From an uncultured virus (IMG/VR IMGVR_UViG_3300028888_000068) (taxonomy: Duplodnaviria > Heunggongvirae > Uroviricota > Caudoviricetes): a stretch of 20,000 nucleotides of DNA. Shown piece after piece: positions 2,434 through 16,299 of this stretch. The position numbers and the translations under genes were made by a program. Under the pieces are notes generated by a model that did no database searches, had not been told where the DNA came from, and saw only the letters and a list, made by a program, of their open reading frames with translations. Location: IMG/VR virus record IMGVR_UViG_3300028888_000068. One strand, written 5' to 3'. Each line of letters begins with the position of its first letter. The first letter of the stretch is position 1.

Positions 2434-3043
2434 CTTCTTTATCTTTTCTAAAACTCGTCTTCTTGTCGAACCCATGACTCTCGGCCTTTTCTTCATCGGT
2501 TCTTGAATCTGTTATTACCGGCTCTTTCATTTTCAGGAGATAGTTATAAATTCCGTTCCATATTTCTTGAGCCGAGAGAAATCCGATGAGAGGGAGGCCG
2601 ACCAGGATAGGGTTCTTCACATAATCCCAAGAATCCCATCGTGAACCAGTCTCTCGATAAGCTAAGACGAGAGGAGCCTGTGGAGATATTAGTTCTTTAT
2701 CAACTCCATAATAAGGATCGGATACCCACCAAGGCATCCAACTCTTTTTCTTCTGATTCTTTAATTCTCCATCCATATCGTATTCCTCAACGGTGAATTT
2801 TATATTATCACCGTCATAATCTCTATTGACAAGGAACCTCTTTTTATAATCTTCGCCTGCCTGAATATATAAGTAGTAATTTCGGCTAGGCTCATTTTTA
2901 AGAGAGTTGAATGGCCTATGGTATCCGTCAAGCTCTTTTCTTGCTACAACGGAATTTCTTCTATCATATACTACATACTCATCTATGCCATTTATTCCGG
3001 CAAGATAATCGTAAAAATCTTTTTTGTTATCTATTATTTTCAT
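2411..3043 (-). CDS. Hypothetical phage protein (210 aa)
   Basis: Long ORF with protein-like composition; minus-strand motif variant CTTATTGATG (3046-3055) lies 2 nt before the ATG. Confidence 0.9.
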   Translation of the reverse strand: MKIIDNKKDFYDYLAGINGIDEYVVYDRRNSVVARKELDGYHRPFNSLKNEPSRNYYLYIQAGEDYKKRFLVNRDYDGDNIKFTVEEYDMDGELKNQKKKSWMPWWVSDPYYGVDKELISPQAPLVLAYRETGSRWDSWDYVKNPILVGLPLIGFLSAQEIWNGIYNYLLKMKEPVITDSRTDEEKAESHGFDKKTSFRKDKEDGKRRKV

Positions 3044-3065
3044 ATCATCAATAAGGCTTTAATCC

Positions 3066-3136
3066 CTTATATATAAGTTTCATATAATGATAGGTTTTAA
3101 GTCCGGCTATTGTGATAATACCCGGGCTTTTTTATT
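3066..3136 (+). ncRNA. ORF-less micro-transcription unit C (putative sRNA)
   Basis: Motif variant CTTATATATA at 3066-3075, 24-nt body, hairpin AGTCCGG...CCGGGCT at 3100-3128, T tract. Confidence 0.5.
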
Positions 3137-3161
3137 TATACCGCCCAGGAAGCCTTAATTC

Positions 3162-3272
3162 CTTATATATGTAGGTTTAGGTTTTAGTACACAACGGGCC
3201 GACAAACTATTAAAAAGATCTGATTTATGTCGGCCCTTAATTATTAACTAAAACCTAGGAAAACTATTTTTT
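3162..3272 (+). ncRNA. ORF-less long-hairpin unit D (putative sRNA)
   Basis: Motif at 3162-3171; stems TAGGTTTTAGT/ACTAAAACCTA and GGGCCGACA/TGTCGGCCC; T tract at about 3267-3273. Confidence 0.5.
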
Positions 3273-5638: not shown

Positions 5639-6826
5639 ATGGAAGGAATTATTAAATCAAAATTAGAAAATGACCTTTACAAATTTTCAATGAGTTATTT
5701 CTATATGATGAAATATCCCAAAGCACAAGGGATTTTTGCATTCCATGATAGAAATAATTCCACATATACGAAGGAATTTGTGGAAAGGCTTAAGAAGGAG
5801 ATACGGCTGTTTGCTGAACTAAGAATGACCAACGAAGAGTTCGAGTGGGCAGTTAAGAATATCCCGTATATCCCTAGATTTTTCTGGGAATGGTATCGTG
5901 GCTTCCAATTTGACCCTTCGGCTGTATCTATAAGCCTGGATTCCGAAAACCATCTTAAAATTTCGGCCTCTGGATATCTTTATCAGATTACTTTTTGGGA
6001 GGTTCCTATTCTCGCTATGGTGTCTGAGATTAAGAATGAACTTGAAGGAAATATCGAAAAGCTTGATGTTAACAAGTTTACTGATGCTCTAAAGAGAAAA
6101 ATCAAACTTTCTAATGACAATGGAATGAAATTTTCTCTCTTTGGAATGCGGCGGAGATTCAGTGGCCCACTGGAGGCTCAGGTAACGGATATTTGCAGTA
6201 GAGAGGCAAAATATTGTGTTGGAACATCCAACGTCTGGTTTGCTTATGTCTATCATATGAGACCAACTGGAACGCTCGCCCATGAACTTATTATGGCAGC
6301 AGGAAGTTGGTATGGTTACAGGATGGCTAACTGGAGAGTGATGGAAGATTGGTCTAGTGTCTTTGGAATTGACCTTGGAACTATGCTGATCGATACCTTT
6401 ACCTGTGATGTATTCTTCTGGAATTTCACAAGGGAACATGCTCATCTATTCTCTTCGTTGAGAATCGATTCTGGTGATGAGTATGAAATTGCTGATAAAG
6501 CTATTAAATCATATCAGAAACTTGGAATTGATCCAACTCAGAAAACTCTAATATTCTCAAACTCTCTTAATTTCCCTAAGGCACTTGCTATTCAGCAGTA
6601 TTGTGGAGATAGAATCAAGACTAGCTTTGGAATTGGAGGAAATCTTACAGCGGATGTTCCCGGAGTTAAGCCTAGCAATATCGTTATGAAGCTATCCCGC
6701 TGTAGATTGACAGAAGATATGGATTGGCGAGATTGCATTAAAATCTCAGACGATCTAGGCAAACACATGGGAAATGAGATTGAGCTAGAGAGAGCCTTAA
6801 TTGAGCTAGAAATAAAGAATCCTTAA
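5639..6826 (+). CDS. pncB: Nicotinate phosphoribosyltransferase
   Basis: ENDLYKFSM, FGMRRRFS, GTSNV, GTLAHE (phospho-His), RIDSGD, IFSNSL, FGIG, NIVMKL, KISDDLGKHMG; 395 aa. Confidence 0.96.
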   Translation: MEGIIKSKLENDLYKFSMSYFYMMKYPKAQGIFAFHDRNNSTYTKEFVERLKKEIRLFAELRMTNEEFEWAVKNIPYIPRFFWEWYRGFQFDPSAVSISLDSENHLKISASGYLYQITFWEVPILAMVSEIKNELEGNIEKLDVNKFTDALKRKIKLSNDNGMKFSLFGMRRRFSGPLEAQVTDICSREAKYCVGTSNVWFAYVYHMRPTGTLAHELIMAAGSWYGYRMANWRVMEDWSSVFGIDLGTMLIDTFTCDVFFWNFTREHAHLFSSLRIDSGDEYEIADKAIKSYQKLGIDPTQKTLIFSNSLNFPKALAIQQYCGDRIKTSFGIGGNLTADVPGVKPSNIVMKLSRCRLTEDMDWRDCIKISDDLGKHMGNEIELERALIELEIKNP

Positions 6827-8661: not shown

Positions 8662-10248
8662 ATGGCAAAAGTAAAACCCTGGGTGAAGATTGTAGGAATT
8701 GCACTCGTCGCCGCTGGCGTTGGACTTGGTCTTAACGCCGCTGGAGTCTTCAAGGGCTCTGAAAACAAAACCACTACTGAAAAAAGCAGTGGAGAGAAGA
8801 AACCCTCTGGAATTTTTGGAGGGAAAACTAAGAAAATTGACTACATAACTGTAGGAACCAACACCTATGCTGGCTTCTTGCCATTTATGTATCTCAACAA
8901 CGGCCTGGAACCGAACGAAGACTGTATTCTCTATAAGGAGTATGGCCTTAAGATGAAAGTTGTCATTCAAGACGACTTCCAGGCTGGACGTATGGCTTTC
9001 AAAAATGGAAACATTGACGTTATCTACTGTACTGTCGATGCTATTCCCGTCGAAATGGGCGAAGGTTCTGAAATGACGGACGCTAAGGTCTTCAACCTCA
9101 GTAACTGGAGCCGCGGAGCAGATGCTATCGTTGTCGGAAAAAATATTAAGAAGGTAGTAGACCTTATCGGCAAAGTAGTAGCCTGCTCTGAAGGAACGGC
9201 CAGCCATACATTACTTCTCAATACCCTTGAGACCTCTGGCATTGGTTACGATAGAGTTAATCTCAAATCCTCTATCGAACCTGACAAAGTTAATATTAAG
9301 GTAGTAGGCTCTGGGCTCGATGCTGCTGCTGCATTTAAGGCAGGTGCTTGTGATGCTGCTGTAGTGTTTTCACCGGACGACCAGGACCTTGTAAATTCTG
9401 GACTCGGTCATGTCCTAGTCTCTACCAAGCAAGCCTCTAGTATTATCTGTGATGGACTTATTGCAAAACAGGATTTCATTGACGCAAATCATGAAAATCT
9501 TGAAAAACTTATCGGCGCTCTCTTGTCTGCTAATGTCAAGATGAATACTGATATGTCCGCCGTCCGTCAGGCAGCACGATATTTTGCCAAAGCTTATGGA
9601 ACAGACGAAGATTTTGCCATCGAGGGTTCTAAAAACATTTACTACGTAACCCTTGAGGATGAAGCCAATTTCTTCGGACTTAGGTCAGACTATACTGGAA
9701 TGAAGGGAGACGAGCTTTATTCCAAGATGGCTAGAACTTATAGCGGTCTTGGTCTAGTTCGGAATCCCATTTCCTGGAGAAAAGCTTCTGATGATTCAGT
9801 TATTGAGGCTCTTCTCGGAAAGCCAGACTTAACTTCCGGAAATCAGGCTGCAGAAACTGGACCTGAATTTGAAGAAAGAGCCGGCCTAGAAACCGCTCCC
9901 GTATTCTCAAACAAGTCAGTTACCATTGAATTTCCGACAGGTTCTGCTACGCTCGATAACAATGGAAAAACAATTATCGATCGAGAGTTTAAGACTCTGG
10001 TTAAGCAGTTCTCTGGAGCTCGGTTTAGAGTTGAGGGAAATACTGACAACACTGGCTCGGCTGCAACTAATGAGGCACTGTCTAAGAGGCGTGCTCAGGC
10101 TGTTGTAGATTACCTAGTCAGAGAATGCGGTGCTGATAGAAATCAGTTTACTGTTGTAGGCAATGGTTCCAAGCATGCAATTGATGCTGGTTCCAAAGGC
10201 TCAGATAGTAGATACAGAACTACTGATCTTTTACTGATCAGTGAATAA
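8662..10248 (+). CDS. ABC substrate-binding protein (NMT1/SsuA/TauA-like) fused to a C-terminal OmpA-like peptidoglycan-binding domain
   Basis: N-terminal signal/anchor; SRGADAIV..DLIGKVVACSEGTASH PBP2 segment; C-terminal IEFPTGSATL..VEGNTDNTGS...NEALSKRRAQAV OmpA_C motif. Confidence 0.92.
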   Translation: MAKVKPWVKIVGIALVAAGVGLGLNAAGVFKGSENKTTTEKSSGEKKPSGIFGGKTKKIDYITVGTNTYAGFLPFMYLNNGLEPNEDCILYKEYGLKMKVVIQDDFQAGRMAFKNGNIDVIYCTVDAIPVEMGEGSEMTDAKVFNLSNWSRGADAIVVGKNIKKVVDLIGKVVACSEGTASHTLLLNTLETSGIGYDRVNLKSSIEPDKVNIKVVGSGLDAAAAFKAGACDAAVVFSPDDQDLVNSGLGHVLVSTKQASSIICDGLIAKQDFIDANHENLEKLIGALLSANVKMNTDMSAVRQAARYFAKAYGTDEDFAIEGSKNIYYVTLEDEANFFGLRSDYTGMKGDELYSKMARTYSGLGLVRNPISWRKASDDSVIEALLGKPDLTSGNQAAETGPEFEERAGLETAPVFSNKSVTIEFPTGSATLDNNGKTIIDREFKTLVKQFSGARFRVEGNTDNTGSAATNEALSKRRAQAVVDYLVRECGADRNQFTVVGNGSKHAIDAGSKGSDSRYRTTDLLLISE

Positions 10249-10313: not shown

Positions 10314-10580
10314 ATGACTAAGAAAGCTGATTGGAAACTAAAAAGAGAAGCTCAAGCAGACATTCTTCTTCCGTGGGCACAAAACAAGATTAAGAAACTT
10401 GGATATAACGCCAAAATAGAAGGATATTCCGTTGTCTTTAGGGTTGGAGTCTGTAAAGTAAGATTCTATCCCTTTACTGGTGGAATTCAGTGGCAAGGAA
10501 CTCCAGGGATAAAAGAAAGAGGAATGAGCAATCTTATAAAACTCATCAATGAACATGAAAAAACTAAAGGGACTGTTTAA
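10314..10580 (+). CDS. Small hypothetical protein (probable start MTKKADWK)
   Basis: In-frame ATG at 10314 after the hairpin at about 10267-10299; contains V.FYPFTG; overlaps the start of the permease gene. Confidence 0.7.
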   Translation: MTKKADWKLKREAQADILLPWAQNKIKKLGYNAKIEGYSVVFRVGVCKVRFYPFTGGIQWQGTPGIKERGMSNLIKLINEHEKTKGTV

Positions 10581-11403
10581 GTTTGGAGGAAGCAGTGATT
10601 TTGGAAAGCTAACGCCGTTAGTCTCGGTGATAGGAATTCTTTTCCTTATTGGACTTTGGTGGTTAGAAGCTAAGTTTGAAGTTATACCAACTAAGATTCT
10701 TCCTGGACCATTCGATGTTTTAGGCTCTTATCCTGGTCTTATCACGGAGAATAGCCTCTTCGGAAATCTATGGTTCACGGTTAAACTGAATCTCTTGGCA
10801 TACTTCTGGGCAATATTAATATCTCTTGTAGTCGGATTTGCACTATCACTGATTCCTTTCCTTAACCTAGCGTTGGGAAAATATCTTAGTGCCCTTCGCT
10901 ATACCCCACTGCCGAGTATCTCTGGTGTCTTCATAGCCGTTGCAGGACTCACATTTGGAATGAAAGTGAGTTTCCTTGCGGCTGGCTTGATAATCTTTAT
11001 ACTTCCGGCAGTAGCAGCGAAGGTAAACGAGCTACAGAATCCAACCAATGACTCCAATATCTACTTAGAGACTATGGAAACTCTGGGTGGAACTAGTTGG
11101 CAGAAGTTTAGGTATGTCTATTTCCCATATGTAACCTCCACAGTCAGTCAGGAAATTATAACCCTAACTGGTGTATCATATTCCTACTGTGTTATCGCCG
11201 AACTTCTTTATAAATCCGGCGAAGGAATTAACGGCGTGGGAAGTTTAATCAATACCCTAATCAGACAATCTCATATGCCTGAAGCCTGGGCATGTTTGTT
11301 CCTGATTATTGCCGTCGGTGTACTTCAAGATTTTCTATTTAAGAAGCTTGATATTGCCCTATTCCCCTTTAAGTATAACAAGAAAAGCATCTGGAGGAAA
11401 TAA
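10549..11403 (+). CDS. ABC transporter permease (TauC/SsuC/NrtB-like)
   Basis: Multiple TM helices, LPGPFDV, RYTPLP, and an EAA-like loop YLETMETLGGTSWQKFRYVYFP. Confidence 0.93.
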   Translation: MNMKKLKGLFKFGGSSDFGKLTPLVSVIGILFLIGLWWLEAKFEVIPTKILPGPFDVLGSYPGLITENSLFGNLWFTVKLNLLAYFWAILISLVVGFALSLIPFLNLALGKYLSALRYTPLPSISGVFIAVAGLTFGMKVSFLAAGLIIFILPAVAAKVNELQNPTNDSNIYLETMETLGGTSWQKFRYVYFPYVTSTVSQEIITLTGVSYSYCVIAELLYKSGEGINGVGSLINTLIRQSHMPEAWACLFLIIAVGVLQDFLFKKLDIALFPFKYNKKSIWRK

Positions 11404-11405
11404 AG

Positions 11406-12377
11406 ATGGGAATATTTAAGAAAGAGCTTGAAGAAAAGAGAAGACAGGAGTTAGAGGCTGAACTTGAGAAAGAAGAAGTCCTCGATAAAACAAGTGTCAA
11501 AGTAGAAACTGTGCCTCAGGAAACATTTGACAAACCGGAGGAAGTAGAAAAAGAAGTTCTTGAAAATGTTAATGTGTTCGACCTTAAGAATATTAATGTT
11601 TCTTTCAAGGTAGGACAAGAAGTCAAACATCTTTTCCAGGACTTTAACCTAGAAATCCCTGATATTCCTGGAAAATCTCAGGTGATTGGGTTTGCTGGTC
11701 CGTCGGGTTGTGGAAAGTCTCAGCTCCTTAGAATTATCTCAGGGCTGTCTAAACCACAATCTGGAGAGGTCCTAGTCTATGGCCAACCCTATACAGACAA
11801 GACCCATTTTCCGCTGATTTTCCAAAGATACAGCAACTATGATTGGATGACCGTCTATGATAATCTTGCCCTTCCCCTTAAAATGAGAGGTATGAAGGAC
11901 GGCGATATAAAGGCGGCCGTAGAAGAGATGATTGATATCTTAGGACTTCGTGGACATGAGCAGAAGTGGGGATATCCGGGAGGTGGACTTTCTGGTGGTC
12001 AATGTCAGAGAATTTCCATCGGCCGTAGTATTCTCGCCGCTGCAGGAAATAAAGACTCTAGGGGAAATCAAATCCTTCTCCTAGACGAAGCCACTAGTGC
12101 TCTTGACATCGTATCTAAGCACGAAGTTCATGACACCCTAATGAATATCTTGTATGGGACCGAACTAGACCCGACTATGATAATCGTTAGTCATGATCCG
12201 TCTGAACTAGCTTTCCTGTGTGATAAAGTCTTCGTTCTTGCTCCCTGGCCCTGTCGTATTCATAAAGTTGTGGACATCGACTATGGGGTGGGAAAGAGAA
12301 CGAGAGAAATCAAAGAAAGTCAGAAATGTCAGGACTATGCAAAGGAAATTGAGCAGTCTATCCGAGAAATTGAATAG
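11406..12377 (+). CDS. ABC transporter ATP-binding protein (TauB/SsuB/NrtD-like)
   Basis: Walker A GPSGCGKS, Q-loop IFQ, signature LSGGQ, Walker B LLLDEATSALD, H-loop VSHD. Confidence 0.96.
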   Translation: MGIFKKELEEKRRQELEAELEKEEVLDKTSVKVETVPQETFDKPEEVEKEVLENVNVFDLKNINVSFKVGQEVKHLFQDFNLEIPDIPGKSQVIGFAGPSGCGKSQLLRIISGLSKPQSGEVLVYGQPYTDKTHFPLIFQRYSNYDWMTVYDNLALPLKMRGMKDGDIKAAVEEMIDILGLRGHEQKWGYPGGGLSGGQCQRISIGRSILAAAGNKDSRGNQILLLDEATSALDIVSKHEVHDTLMNILYGTELDPTMIIVSHDPSELAFLCDKVFVLAPWPCRIHKVVDIDYGVGKRTREIKESQKCQDYAKEIEQSIREIE

Positions 12378-14485: not shown

Positions 14486-15760
14486 ATGATAACAATTGAT
14501 GATCTCCCAGAAGAAGGAGGAAATTATGCAAAAACCAAAAAAGAGTGGGAAGAAGTAGATCACCTGTATATTCATTATTTTTATAAGATAACCAACAATA
14601 TTAATAATAAATATTATTACGGTATTCATTCTATCCTAAAAGAAGATCCAAAATCAAATGACCTAGTAAATGATGGCTATTGGGGTTCTGGTACTGCTAT
14701 TCATGAGGCTGAAATAAAATATGGGCTTGAAAATTTTACTAAAACCGTTGAAGCAATTTTTTCTACACGAGCCGAAGTTAGAATTTATGAAGCAGAAATA
14801 GTAACGCAGGAATTAGTAGATGATAGAATGTGTTATAATATGGTTCTAGGAGGATGCGAGAGTCCTATATGGCAAGGAGGATGGATATTAGTTAATTATA
14901 GAGATGAAAGTCTAAGAAAAGAAAAAATGTTCAGTATTCCAACAGAAGAATATCAAAGTAACAAAGACAAATATATAACCTCTATGTCGGGGCTTATTTC
15001 TGTTAATTATCGAGATCCAGAAAAACGACTTCCTAAATTTTTTACAATAAGTTCTGAAGAATATTACAAAAATAAAGACCTATATATAACTTCGTTTTCT
15101 GATAAAGTAGCCTATAAGAATAAAGAAAACTGGGAAGACGTTAGGTGGCTTAGCTCTGATGATCCATTAGTATTATCTGGTCAGTTTATAGGGATAACTA
15201 AGGGTCTTAAGCAATCTCAAGAAACTATAAACAAAAAGATAGGAGAGAAAAATGGATCTTATGGTAGTTTTTGGGTTACTAATGGAAAAGAAAATAAGAA
15301 AATAAGCAATCAAGATATTCCTGAGGGTTGGTGGAAGGGGAGAATTATTGATGAGACAAAAATAAAATACTGTTATATAAATATAGAAACCGGCGAACAT
15401 AAATATTTCTTAAAAACTGAGAATCCTGGACATCCTTGGTTTAAAGATTTTATGGTAGACAAAAATTTAGAAGTAATAACCATAACCAGATTAGAGGGAT
15501 ATCTAAAGGATGGAAAAACAAAAAAGGAGTTATCAGAAATTTTTGGTATATGTATAAAGTCGGTGGCCAAACTAGTAAAATATTATATAGGTCTTGGGAA
15601 ACTTGATAATAAATATTATATACTTAAAAATTCAGTTCGTCATCAGGCTAGTACTAAGTATATGTTTATTAGAGATAAAAGTACTGGAAAGGTTCGCAGG
15701 GTGTTATCTGAACAAGCCAAAAAGTTCCTAAATAATACAGATGCATTTGAAAAGCTTTAA
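14486..15760 (+). CDS. Free-standing GIY-YIG (Seg-like) homing endonuclease
   Basis: HYFYKITNNINNKYYYGIH..YWGSG..IKYGLENF..YE..YNMVLGG catalytic domain; GEKNGSYGSFWVTNG..GWWKGR DNA-binding module; possible C-terminal HTH; located in a tRNA cluster. Confidence 0.88.
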   Translation: MITIDDLPEEGGNYAKTKKEWEEVDHLYIHYFYKITNNINNKYYYGIHSILKEDPKSNDLVNDGYWGSGTAIHEAEIKYGLENFTKTVEAIFSTRAEVRIYEAEIVTQELVDDRMCYNMVLGGCESPIWQGGWILVNYRDESLRKEKMFSIPTEEYQSNKDKYITSMSGLISVNYRDPEKRLPKFFTISSEEYYKNKDLYITSFSDKVAYKNKENWEDVRWLSSDDPLVLSGQFIGITKGLKQSQETINKKIGEKNGSYGSFWVTNGKENKKISNQDIPEGWWKGRIIDETKIKYCYINIETGEHKYFLKTENPGHPWFKDFMVDKNLEVITITRLEGYLKDGKTKKELSEIFGICIKSVAKLVKYYIGLGKLDNKYYILKNSVRHQASTKYMFIRDKSTGKVRRVLSEQAKKFLNNTDAFEKL

Positions 15761-15788
15761 ATTCCTTATATTTGAAAATCATCTTCGT

Positions 15789-16128
15789 GGCTCGATGGTG
15801 AAACTGGTAGAATTGTCTGCCTCTCTATAAAGAAATTTATAGAAGATAGGTCCCCTAAACGGTGAAGACTAAACAGAAATGCATGTTAATACCGTGGCAA
15901 ATCCTGAAAAGGATAGTCCGTAGAGAATATACAGGGACAGCCTAAGGGAAATCTAAGGCTAAGATTGATTCCAGACCACAAACAAATACGATAGTAAGAG
16001 TTGGAACATCTAACATAATACAAAATTTCATGTATTTGGTAGCGAAAACTATAGTGGTCCAAGACACGAGGGACTTAAAATCCCTTAGCCCGAAGGGGCT
16101 GTGGTGGGTTCGATTCCCCCTCGAGCTA
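15789..16128 (+). tRNA. trnL: tRNA-Leu(UAA) split by an intron in the D-loop (exons about 15789-15808 and 16062-16128)
   Basis: Joined exons give GGCTCGA-TG-GTG-AAACTGGTAGA-CAC-G-AGGGA-CTTAAAA-TCCCT, variable arm AGCCC-GAAG-GGGCT, T loop TTCGATT, TCGAGCT-A; promoter variant CTTATATTTG at 15765-15774. Confidence 0.92.
15809..16061 (+). mobile_element. Group I intron, 253 nt, no internal ORF (boundary ambiguous by up to 3 nt because of an AGA repeat)
   Basis: P1 GGT|AGA-ATTG-TCTGCC with U-G wobble; P2 15824-15843; P3 GTCCC/GGGAC; P4 ACGGT/ACCGT; P6 hairpin ATCCT-GAAA-AGGAT; P7 GAGAAT/ATTCC; P8 AGCCT/AGGCT; P9 GACCAC/GTGGTC and CAAATAC/GTATTTG. Confidence 0.9.
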
Positions 16129-16145
16129 CAATTCAACACAAAATC

Positions 16146-16229
16146 GGACCGGTGGCGAAATTGGCGAGACGCGCTAGTCTTAGGAACTAGTACATTGATA
16201 CACTGTGGGTTCAAATCCCACCCGGTCTA
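16146..16229 (+). tRNA. trnL: tRNA-Leu(UAG)
   Basis: GGACCGG/CCGGTCT acceptor, CTAGT-CTTAGGA-ACTAG anticodon arm, long variable region, GTGGG-TTCAAAT-CCCAC T arm. Confidence 0.94.
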
Positions 16230-16261
16230 CAGACCAACCAACTTAACAAAAAACTATTCAT

Positions 16262-16299
16262 GCTGCATACCTTTGGAGGGGTATGCAGCTGTTTTTTTT
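16262..16299 (+). terminator. Rho-independent terminator after the tRNA-Leu pair
   Basis: GCTGCATACC...GGTATGCAGC followed by a T8 tract. Confidence 0.8.

Follow-up and report, generated by a model that had tools for sequence, protein, structure and literature searches.

The tRNA-Leu(UAA) gene of an uncultured virus is very probably split in its D-loop by a group I intron. The gene lies in a 20,000-nucleotide stretch of DNA (IMG/VR record IMGVR_UViG_3300028888_000068), referred to here as the window, which was detected in gut sequencing runs from sheep and cattle (15 studies) and is probably part of a large phage from the sheep gut. From its structure and descent the insert is classed with the group I introns, and it is probably IC3-like, as bacterial tRNA introns are. 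The best overall explanation, held with reasonable rather than strong confidence, is a D-loop group I intron with the self-splicing and endonuclease-aided spread proposed below. The features of the locus are collected in Table 1.

Table 1 Features of the window (positions counted from its first nucleotide)
Feature	Position	Strand	Basis or remark
Nicotinate phosphoribosyltransferase	5639-6826		side observation
Periplasmic-binding/OmpA-domain protein	8662-10248		side observation
Permease-like + ABC ATPase pair	10549-12377		side observation
Free-standing homing-endonuclease gene, GIY-YIG-like, 424 aa	14486..15760	+	phrog_314 'homing endonuclease' 1.3e-18
5' exon of tRNA-Leu(UAA)	15789..15808	+	sequence; ARAGORN cloverleaf after in-silico intron removal
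Group I intron (very probable), 253 nt as set by the exons	15809..16061	+	fold, custom models, RNA contig joint 15808->16062
P1 hairpin GGUAGA/UCUGCC	15806-11/15816-21 (15806..15821)	+	read from sequence
P2 hairpin, GAAA loop	15822..15846	+	
P3	15850-54/15934-38 (15850..15938)	+	encloses P4, P5, P6 and the P7 5' strand
P4	15859-63/15891-95	+	
P5	15867-69/15885-87	+	
P6	15896-97/15918-19 and 15901-05/15910-14	+	
P7	15923, 15925-28/15968-72 (15923..15972)	+	encloses P8 and J8/7
P8	15939-60	+	
J8/7, AAGAUUG	15961-67	+	
P9, GACCAC/GUGGUC	15974-79/16054-59 (15974..16059)	+	
Terminal intron base (omega position), A in place of G	16061	+	gapless sister alignment
3' exon of tRNA-Leu(UAA)	16062..16127	+	sequence; ARAGORN on spliced form
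Intron-less tRNA-Leu(UAG), neighbour	16146..16230	+	ARAGORN, Rfam tRNA
Terminator-like hairpin + T-run, closing the tRNA pair	16262..16299	+	

The gene extends from 15789 to 16127 and, as read from the sequence, has 253 nt inserted after U15808. The 5' exon comprises the 7-nt acceptor strand, U8, G9, the D-stem GUG and the D-loop up to G18 G19 U20. The 3' exon provides the rest of the D-loop and D-stem, the anticodon arm, the long variable arm that marks a class II tRNA, the T-arm, the acceptor strand and the discriminator A16127, with no encoded CCA. The anticodon arm with UAA runs without interruption within the 3' exon, as had been described in the initial annotation of this DNA. When 15809-16061 was removed by script, the remainder was recognised by ARAGORN as a tRNA-Leu(taa) of 88 nt that folds into a normal cloverleaf. 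The split gene with its two exons 253 nt apart was borne out. The unspliced gene was called neither by ARAGORN nor by the Rfam tRNA model, though both pick up the window's remaining four (Gln, Glu, Met and Leu-UAG); the expectation that standard scanners would miss it was correct. The sole flaw of the spliced cloverleaf is a U.C mismatch at the second pair of the T-stem (window 16100-16126; ARAGORN drawing), found also in the related locus L015. The proteins of the neighbouring genes had no relatives in IMG/VR. Between 5639 and 12377 this phage-like window carries metabolic and transport genes that look host-type.

The insert folds into the complete group I core that had been claimed for it: every helix from P1 to P9 is present, the pocket pair in P7 is G-C, and a script check of the window found each of the 35 modelled core pairs to be a standard one. 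P1 places a U15808.G15819 wobble at the 5' splice site, and the same P1 is present in five further D-loop copies (L013, L033, L039 and both copies in L015). A P10 of 5 bp is possible between the first five bases of the 3' exon, 16062-66, and the guide strand 15814-18 (read from the sequence). The loop of P2 is of the GNRA type throughout the D-loop lineages (GAAA, GUAA or GCAA), and P5 bears a UAAA/CAU internal loop. P3 and P7 cross to form the pseudoknot found in every group I intron. In P7 the bulged A15924 is followed by the pair G15925-C15971, which we take to be the guanosine pocket by analogy with Tetrahymena G264-C311; it is G-C in all 11 distinct sequences compared. The segments flanking P7 resemble the classical R and S elements. 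Introns of the IC3 class have a small core without P5abc, and the GNRA loops of their P2 and P9 dock into helix receptors. P9 of the window contains a variable insert (approximately 15985-16036) and a conserved GAAA-type hairpin (16040-16051), the latter kept in the anticodon-loop sister introns described below. The 340-nt stretch with the whole locus folded better than 100 of 100 shuffled sequences (z = -4.5). As a side observation, the interior of P9 behaves as a swappable cassette: it holds two small hairpins at 15985-16036 of the window and a different insert of roughly 60 nt at 2690-2750 of L015, and is replaced by 4-11 nt loops in contigs of RNA runs.

The Rfam group I model RF00028 did not match 15700-16250 of the window at E<=10 or at the Rfam gathering threshold, nor did it match the other D-loop loci (L013, L015, L033 and L039) at E<=5. 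Cyanobacterial introns used as positive controls matched at about 72-74 bits, L153 among them at 71.6 bits. The silence of RF00028 was rejected as evidence against an intron, since the model also misses sister introns at the classical site (no match at E<=1 on any of the four, out of eight, that were scanned). Two models were therefore of interest beside it: R1, a model of the core (15847-15973, P4-P8 without P3) built solely from the window and L015a, its near-twin, and R2, built from five D-loop introns. The R1 scores were 85.8 bits for the second copy in L015, 43.6 bits for the intron of L013/L033, 16.4 bits for L152 and 30.6 bits for L153, which was matched over its full length, inside the RF00028 match and with an E-value of 6e-6, which is rough, as are all E-values of R1 and R2 owing to their short calibration. 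R2 matched L152 (54.8 bits) and L153 (51.0 bits), both over the full length and inside the RF00028 matches; this coincidence of placement at two separate loci is independent of the rough E-values. The absence of a covariance-model hit, which the initial annotation had named as a ground for refutation, thus applies to RF00028 in a formal sense only, as the family models match RF00028-positive cyanobacterial introns. The intron core is homologous to phage introns in the anticodon loop of tRNA-Leu and to RF00028-positive cyanobacterial introns.

Covariation was assessed in an alignment of 13 sequences, 11 of them distinct. Standard pairs made up 98.8 % of the alignment cells, the helices other than P3 having been aligned by fitting to a model, which favours pairing. 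Compensatory changes on both sides were found in 22 of the 35 core pairs, a count reached by none of 500 shuffles, and pairing fell to 42 % or less when the partners were slid. The alignment of P3 is unbiased because P3 is absent from the model; this helix was paired in 98.2 % of cases and all five of its pairs showed compensatory change. In the smaller set of D-loop copies alone 15 of the 35 pairs were compensatory.

A metagenome scan with a pattern that combined the 5' part of tRNA-Leu and the P1 hairpin returned 40 loci. In four of them (L013, L015, L033 and L039) a tRNA-Leu(UAA) is split at the same place as in the window; 13 carry an unrelated short hairpin, and the remainder are chance matches or ordinary tRNAs. 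The D-loop site is thus occupied in the window and in three other metagenome lineages, which makes at least four locus types. L015 is a relative of the window's genome (92 % identical) with the same intron and a different P9 insert. The intron of L039 was not recognised by R1 or R2 (12-13 bits), and it is its P1, the shared site and its terminal G that suggest a group I nature. L015 has a second D-loop intron (L015b, 2854-3170) in the adjacent tRNA-Leu(UAG), also ending in A before the exon; the window has at this position an unrelated, intron-less tRNA-Leu(UAG). In L015b, residing in a different tRNA, P3, P6 and P8 are rebuilt by compensatory changes.

No D-loop introns were found in IMG/VR with the exact P1 16-mer (5 loci), with P1 plus S element patterns (0 and 5 loci) or with a relaxed 5'-exon/P1 pattern (51 loci); what these scans returned were chance matches or ordinary tRNAs. 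None of the 49 loci from 185,579 species genomes was a D-loop group I intron, and the seven INPHARED records obtained by blastn matched in the tRNA only. The initial annotation had regarded the insertion at position 20/20a as independent and undescribed. The site is indeed absent from the literature searched; the insertion is not a one-off, being present in at least four locus types, and its core probably descends from anticodon-loop introns of phage tRNA-Leu.

A scan of IMG/VR with the R and S elements of the window gave eight loci, L157-L164, on viral contigs of 5-219 kb. All eight carry the same core (58-71 bits with R1), with R and S elements identical to those of the window, and interrupt tRNA-Leu(UAA) in the anticodon loop, the classical site; their 3' exon starts with AAAAUCCC in every case. 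The 5' exon and acceptor strand were located in four of the eight; the search pattern failed in the other four. L161, L163 and L164 (620-622 nt) contain an HNH-like ORF inside the intron, running into the ribozyme core, and the L157 intron (292 nt) is without such an ORF. These sisters are the nearest relatives of the window's intron, with a 3' region (P9/L9) that aligns to it without gaps, and they differ from it in the classical site, in the terminal G and, in three cases, in an intron-internal HNH-like ORF as opposed to the free-standing upstream gene of the window. The window's core is more closely related to these phage introns of the classical site than it is to the second D-loop lineage; its P1/P2 module, by contrast, resembles that of L013. 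From this combination we infer that the lineage left the anticodon loop for the D-loop by exchange of the guide module, both the direction and the mechanism of the move being part of the inference.

The initial annotation had overlooked the last base of the 253-nt stretch, which is A16061 and not G. The omega-G expected of a group I intron was not found at the exon-defined end, and the nearest downstream G is G16063, 2 nt inside the 3' exon. Since AGA stands at both borders of the insert, the splice point is in itself ambiguous by up to 3 nt. The last 24 nt of the intron align without gaps to all eight anticodon-loop sisters, which puts A16061 opposite their terminal G: after the shared string UAUAGU(G/A)GU the sisters end 3 nt on with A(C/A)G, and the window 3 nt on with CCA. 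Loss of two bases, AG, from the 3' junction was considered and rejected; a G-to-A substitution is preferred because the tail has the same length as in all eight sisters. The L013/L033 and L039 introns have the canonical terminal G right before the same exon start. The terminal A is common to the window, both L015 copies and two loose-end variants in RNA runs, and among the terminal-A copies are ones with compensatory differences in the P3, P6, P8 or L9 stems, which suggests that their fold stayed under selection. The window and L015a are uninformative on selection since the G-to-A change, because their cores differ by a single base.

RNA evidence came from four sheep-gut metatranscriptome runs (X5, X10, X11 and X12) of at most three samples, searched as contigs and not as raw reads, so that RNA ends and strand cannot be read from them. 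The intron was covered in all four runs, and in X5 the intron contigs had a depth of about 600 versus 44 for the upstream gene. One contig, with a depth of 13.8 and found in one of the four runs, joins 15808 to 16062, which is the exact 253-nt skip; its short side has 25 nt, 5 of which correspond to the window-type leader. No such joint was present among the contigs of X10, X11 and X12, and a 255-nt skip was absent from the contigs of all four runs. Contigs of all four runs break at 16062 and not at 16064. Some RNA-run variants have an altered L9 stem. In X12 the L015b-type tRNA next door was seen without an intron, and intron-less forms were seen solely as contigs of RNA runs. The joined contig suggests splicing; a contig of this kind could also arise from an intron-less allele, present as DNA or as RNA. 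The junction search in metatranscriptomes proposed earlier thus yielded the exact joint in a single contig, with three runs lacking it and an alternative source conceivable. The exons, P10, the sister alignment, the RNA joint and the contig breaks all place the end of the intron at A16061.

According to the proposed mechanism, the intron RNA would excise itself via two transesterifications, in the first of which free GTP would attack after U15808, and in the second of which the 5' exon would attack after A16061, with P10 as a guide, yielding a normal tRNA-Leu. The terminal A would probably slow the second step, as in the one published natural case, the intron Cbu.L1917 of Coxiella, which reportedly splices, and more slowly. 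The lineage would have arrived in the D-loop from the anticodon loop with a new P1/P2 guide module, and its spread at the DNA level may be aided by the free-standing endonuclease gene just upstream. That the window's intron still splices in vivo to a canonical tRNA is held to be somewhat more probable than not. The wider proposition, that the terminal-A D-loop introns of phages still splice in the rumen to normal tRNA-Leu and so constitute a working 'handicapped' ribozyme lineage, is advanced tentatively and with more doubt than conviction.

The insert could instead be a splice-dead relic, group I by descent, in which the terminal G-to-A change blocks exon ligation and the tRNA-Leu(UAA) gene is inactive; it would persist and spread only via the adjacent homing endonuclease, and the RNA join would derive from intron-less alleles. 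Work on Tetrahymena mutants implies that exon ligation should be poor when a terminal A meets an ordinary G-C pocket, and this is the situation in the window, where A16061 stands in the place of the G of all eight sisters and of L013, L033 and L039 and the pocket pair remains G-C. The joint being confined to a single contig of one run with a 25-nt short side, the occurrence of an intron-less L015b-type tRNA in X12, the U.C mismatch in the T-stem and the fact that phage tRNAs are often dispensable all count in the same direction. Against it, the A is shared by diverged copies in which P3, P6 and P8 (L015b) or the L9 stem (RNA-run variants) changed with compensation, and the 5 nt of window-type leader in the joined contig adjoin the endonuclease gene. 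Moreover, Cbu.L1917 is on record as a natural intron with a terminal A that reportedly still splices. On balance a dead relic is regarded as unlikely, though it deserves to be kept in mind.

Two further readings concern the borders and the nature of the insert. The ribozyme might use G16063 as its terminal G, so that the intron would have 255 nt and the spliced D-loop would be two bases shorter. The G-specificity of the pocket favours this, as do the AAG present here in the window, in L015b and in one RNA-run variant, with the same triplet at the true end of the sister L159, and the ARAGORN call of the shorter product as a tRNA-Leu. However, the RNA contigs contain the 253-nt skip and in none of the four runs the 255-nt one, their breaks fall at 16062 in all four, only 1 bp of the 5 bp of P10 would be left, the eight sisters align without gaps to an end at 16061, and the resulting tRNA would be missing two bases that every other tRNA-Leu form examined has; use of G16063 is thus improbable. 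A small transposable element or another insertion that broke the tRNA gene with an AGA target duplication could explain the AGA at both ends and the silence of RF00028. The AGA repeat is, however, predicted by the P1/P10 logic, no terminal inverted repeats were seen by eye in the 253-nt insert, and an element of this kind would leave unexplained a full group I core with covariation support whose custom models give reciprocal matches to RF00028-positive introns. An origin other than an intron is therefore scarcely credible, and self-splicing with the end at A16061 remains the preferred reading.

The 424-aa endonuclease gene ends 28 nt before the split tRNA. Its match to Pfam SegE_GIY-YIG (0.0021) is below the Pfam cut-off, and one distant relative was found, in L006. 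In L015 the same upstream slot is taken by an HNH endonuclease gene (331 aa), and in L039 an endonuclease gene of the same PHROG as that of L015 (phrog_10822, about 1e-46) lies two genes upstream. Free-standing endonuclease genes are thus present upstream in three of the four D-loop locus types (window, L015 and L039); in L033 the three ORFs flanking the tRNA (553-1026, 1010-1288 and 1946-2281) gave no endonuclease-family match. The endonuclease would help the intron to spread because the intron would disrupt the target of the enzyme, which intron-less alleles retain.

The combination of an intron with a free-standing nuclease gene is known from T4-like phages and cyanophages. Under the name 'collaborative homing' such a partnership of intron and free-standing homing endonuclease is said to have been described in 2009 by Bonocora and Shub and by Zeng et al. 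The layout in the window fits this arrangement by analogy, with an ORF-less group I intron whose host gene has a free-standing endonuclease gene as its immediate neighbour, a slot taken by two unrelated nuclease families (GIY-YIG-like and HNH) in related genomes. It differs in that the putative target is here a tRNA D-loop. The two unrelated genes in one slot offer a case in which co-mobility of intron and endonuclease may be studied.

Classical anticodon-loop introns of tRNA-Leu share with the window the host tRNA, the ribozyme core, the small size, the lack of an ORF and the U.G at the 5' splice site. They sit after U34 (L153 splits the anticodon loop after CUU), whereas the window's intron sits in the D-loop after U20, pairs its P1/guide with D-loop bases, ends in A and escapes RF00028. 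The 343 T-loop group I introns of tmRNA genes reported by Williams (2020) also interrupt a tRNA-like molecule outside the anticodon loop, and are set apart, by description, by the other molecule and the other loop. In the same survey, the largest one, only eight anticodon-loop positions were tested, and the tmRNA T-loop is the sole other site listed. PMC5733544 states that cyanobacterial tRNAs have no introns outside the anticodon loop. Archaeal bulge-helix-bulge introns, according to PMC4090602, occur at non-canonical positions of tRNA genes, the D-loop included, and so likewise interrupt the gene outside the anticodon loop; unlike the phage or bacterial setting of the window, they have no ribozyme core and are removed by a protein endonuclease and a ligase. 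The nearest parallel for the terminal base is Cbu.L1917 in Coxiella burnetii's gene for 23S rRNA, which 'lacks the canonical omegaG' (Raghavan et al. 2007, J Bacteriol 189:6572). It is a naturally occurring group I intron that ends in a base other than G, and, compared by description only, it is unrelated to the window's intron and hosted by a bacterial rRNA gene. No D-loop group I intron in a tRNA was found in the full-text literature searched, which is largely open-access. The D-loop is accordingly a new site for a group I intron, and the terminal base is a rare one.

The D-loop site implies that retargeting of the ribozyme to another loop of a single tRNA is possible. If the move by guide-module swap is true, this would be the first group I intron to have exchanged the anticodon loop of a tRNA for its D-loop, and if the terminal-A introns splice, they would form, as far as known, the second natural group I lineage without a terminal G. 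A slow second step could then serve as a timer or gate on the supply of phage tRNA-Leu. With one core, two sites and a terminal G or A, the family is a natural series for the study of splice-site choice, and it supplies compact ribozymes with new guide sequences. As tRNA finders and the Rfam intron model are blind to such genes, the tRNA sets of phages are undercounted.

A short hairpin was observed at the identical D-loop point (after GGUAGA) in tRNA-Leu 5' parts of 13 of the 40 metagenome loci (L017, L018, L020, L024, L025, L027, L029, L031, L038, L042, L044, L050 and L051) and 19 of the 49 genome loci (L105, L109, L111, L115, L117, L120, L121, L123, L125, L131, L134, L136, L137, L138, L142, L146, L147, L148 and L150). 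The genome loci are mostly from Bacteroidota, and L150 is titled Candidatus Saccharibacteria. One and the same 20-nt insert is present in 10 of the 13 and 17 of the 19 loci, respectively, and the hairpin starts with a P1-like pairing. The unit often ends after the D-arm or the anticodon arm, with a complete tRNA-Leu about 100-200 nt downstream; an intron scar, a leader RNA and a decoy are all conceivable identities of the hairpin.
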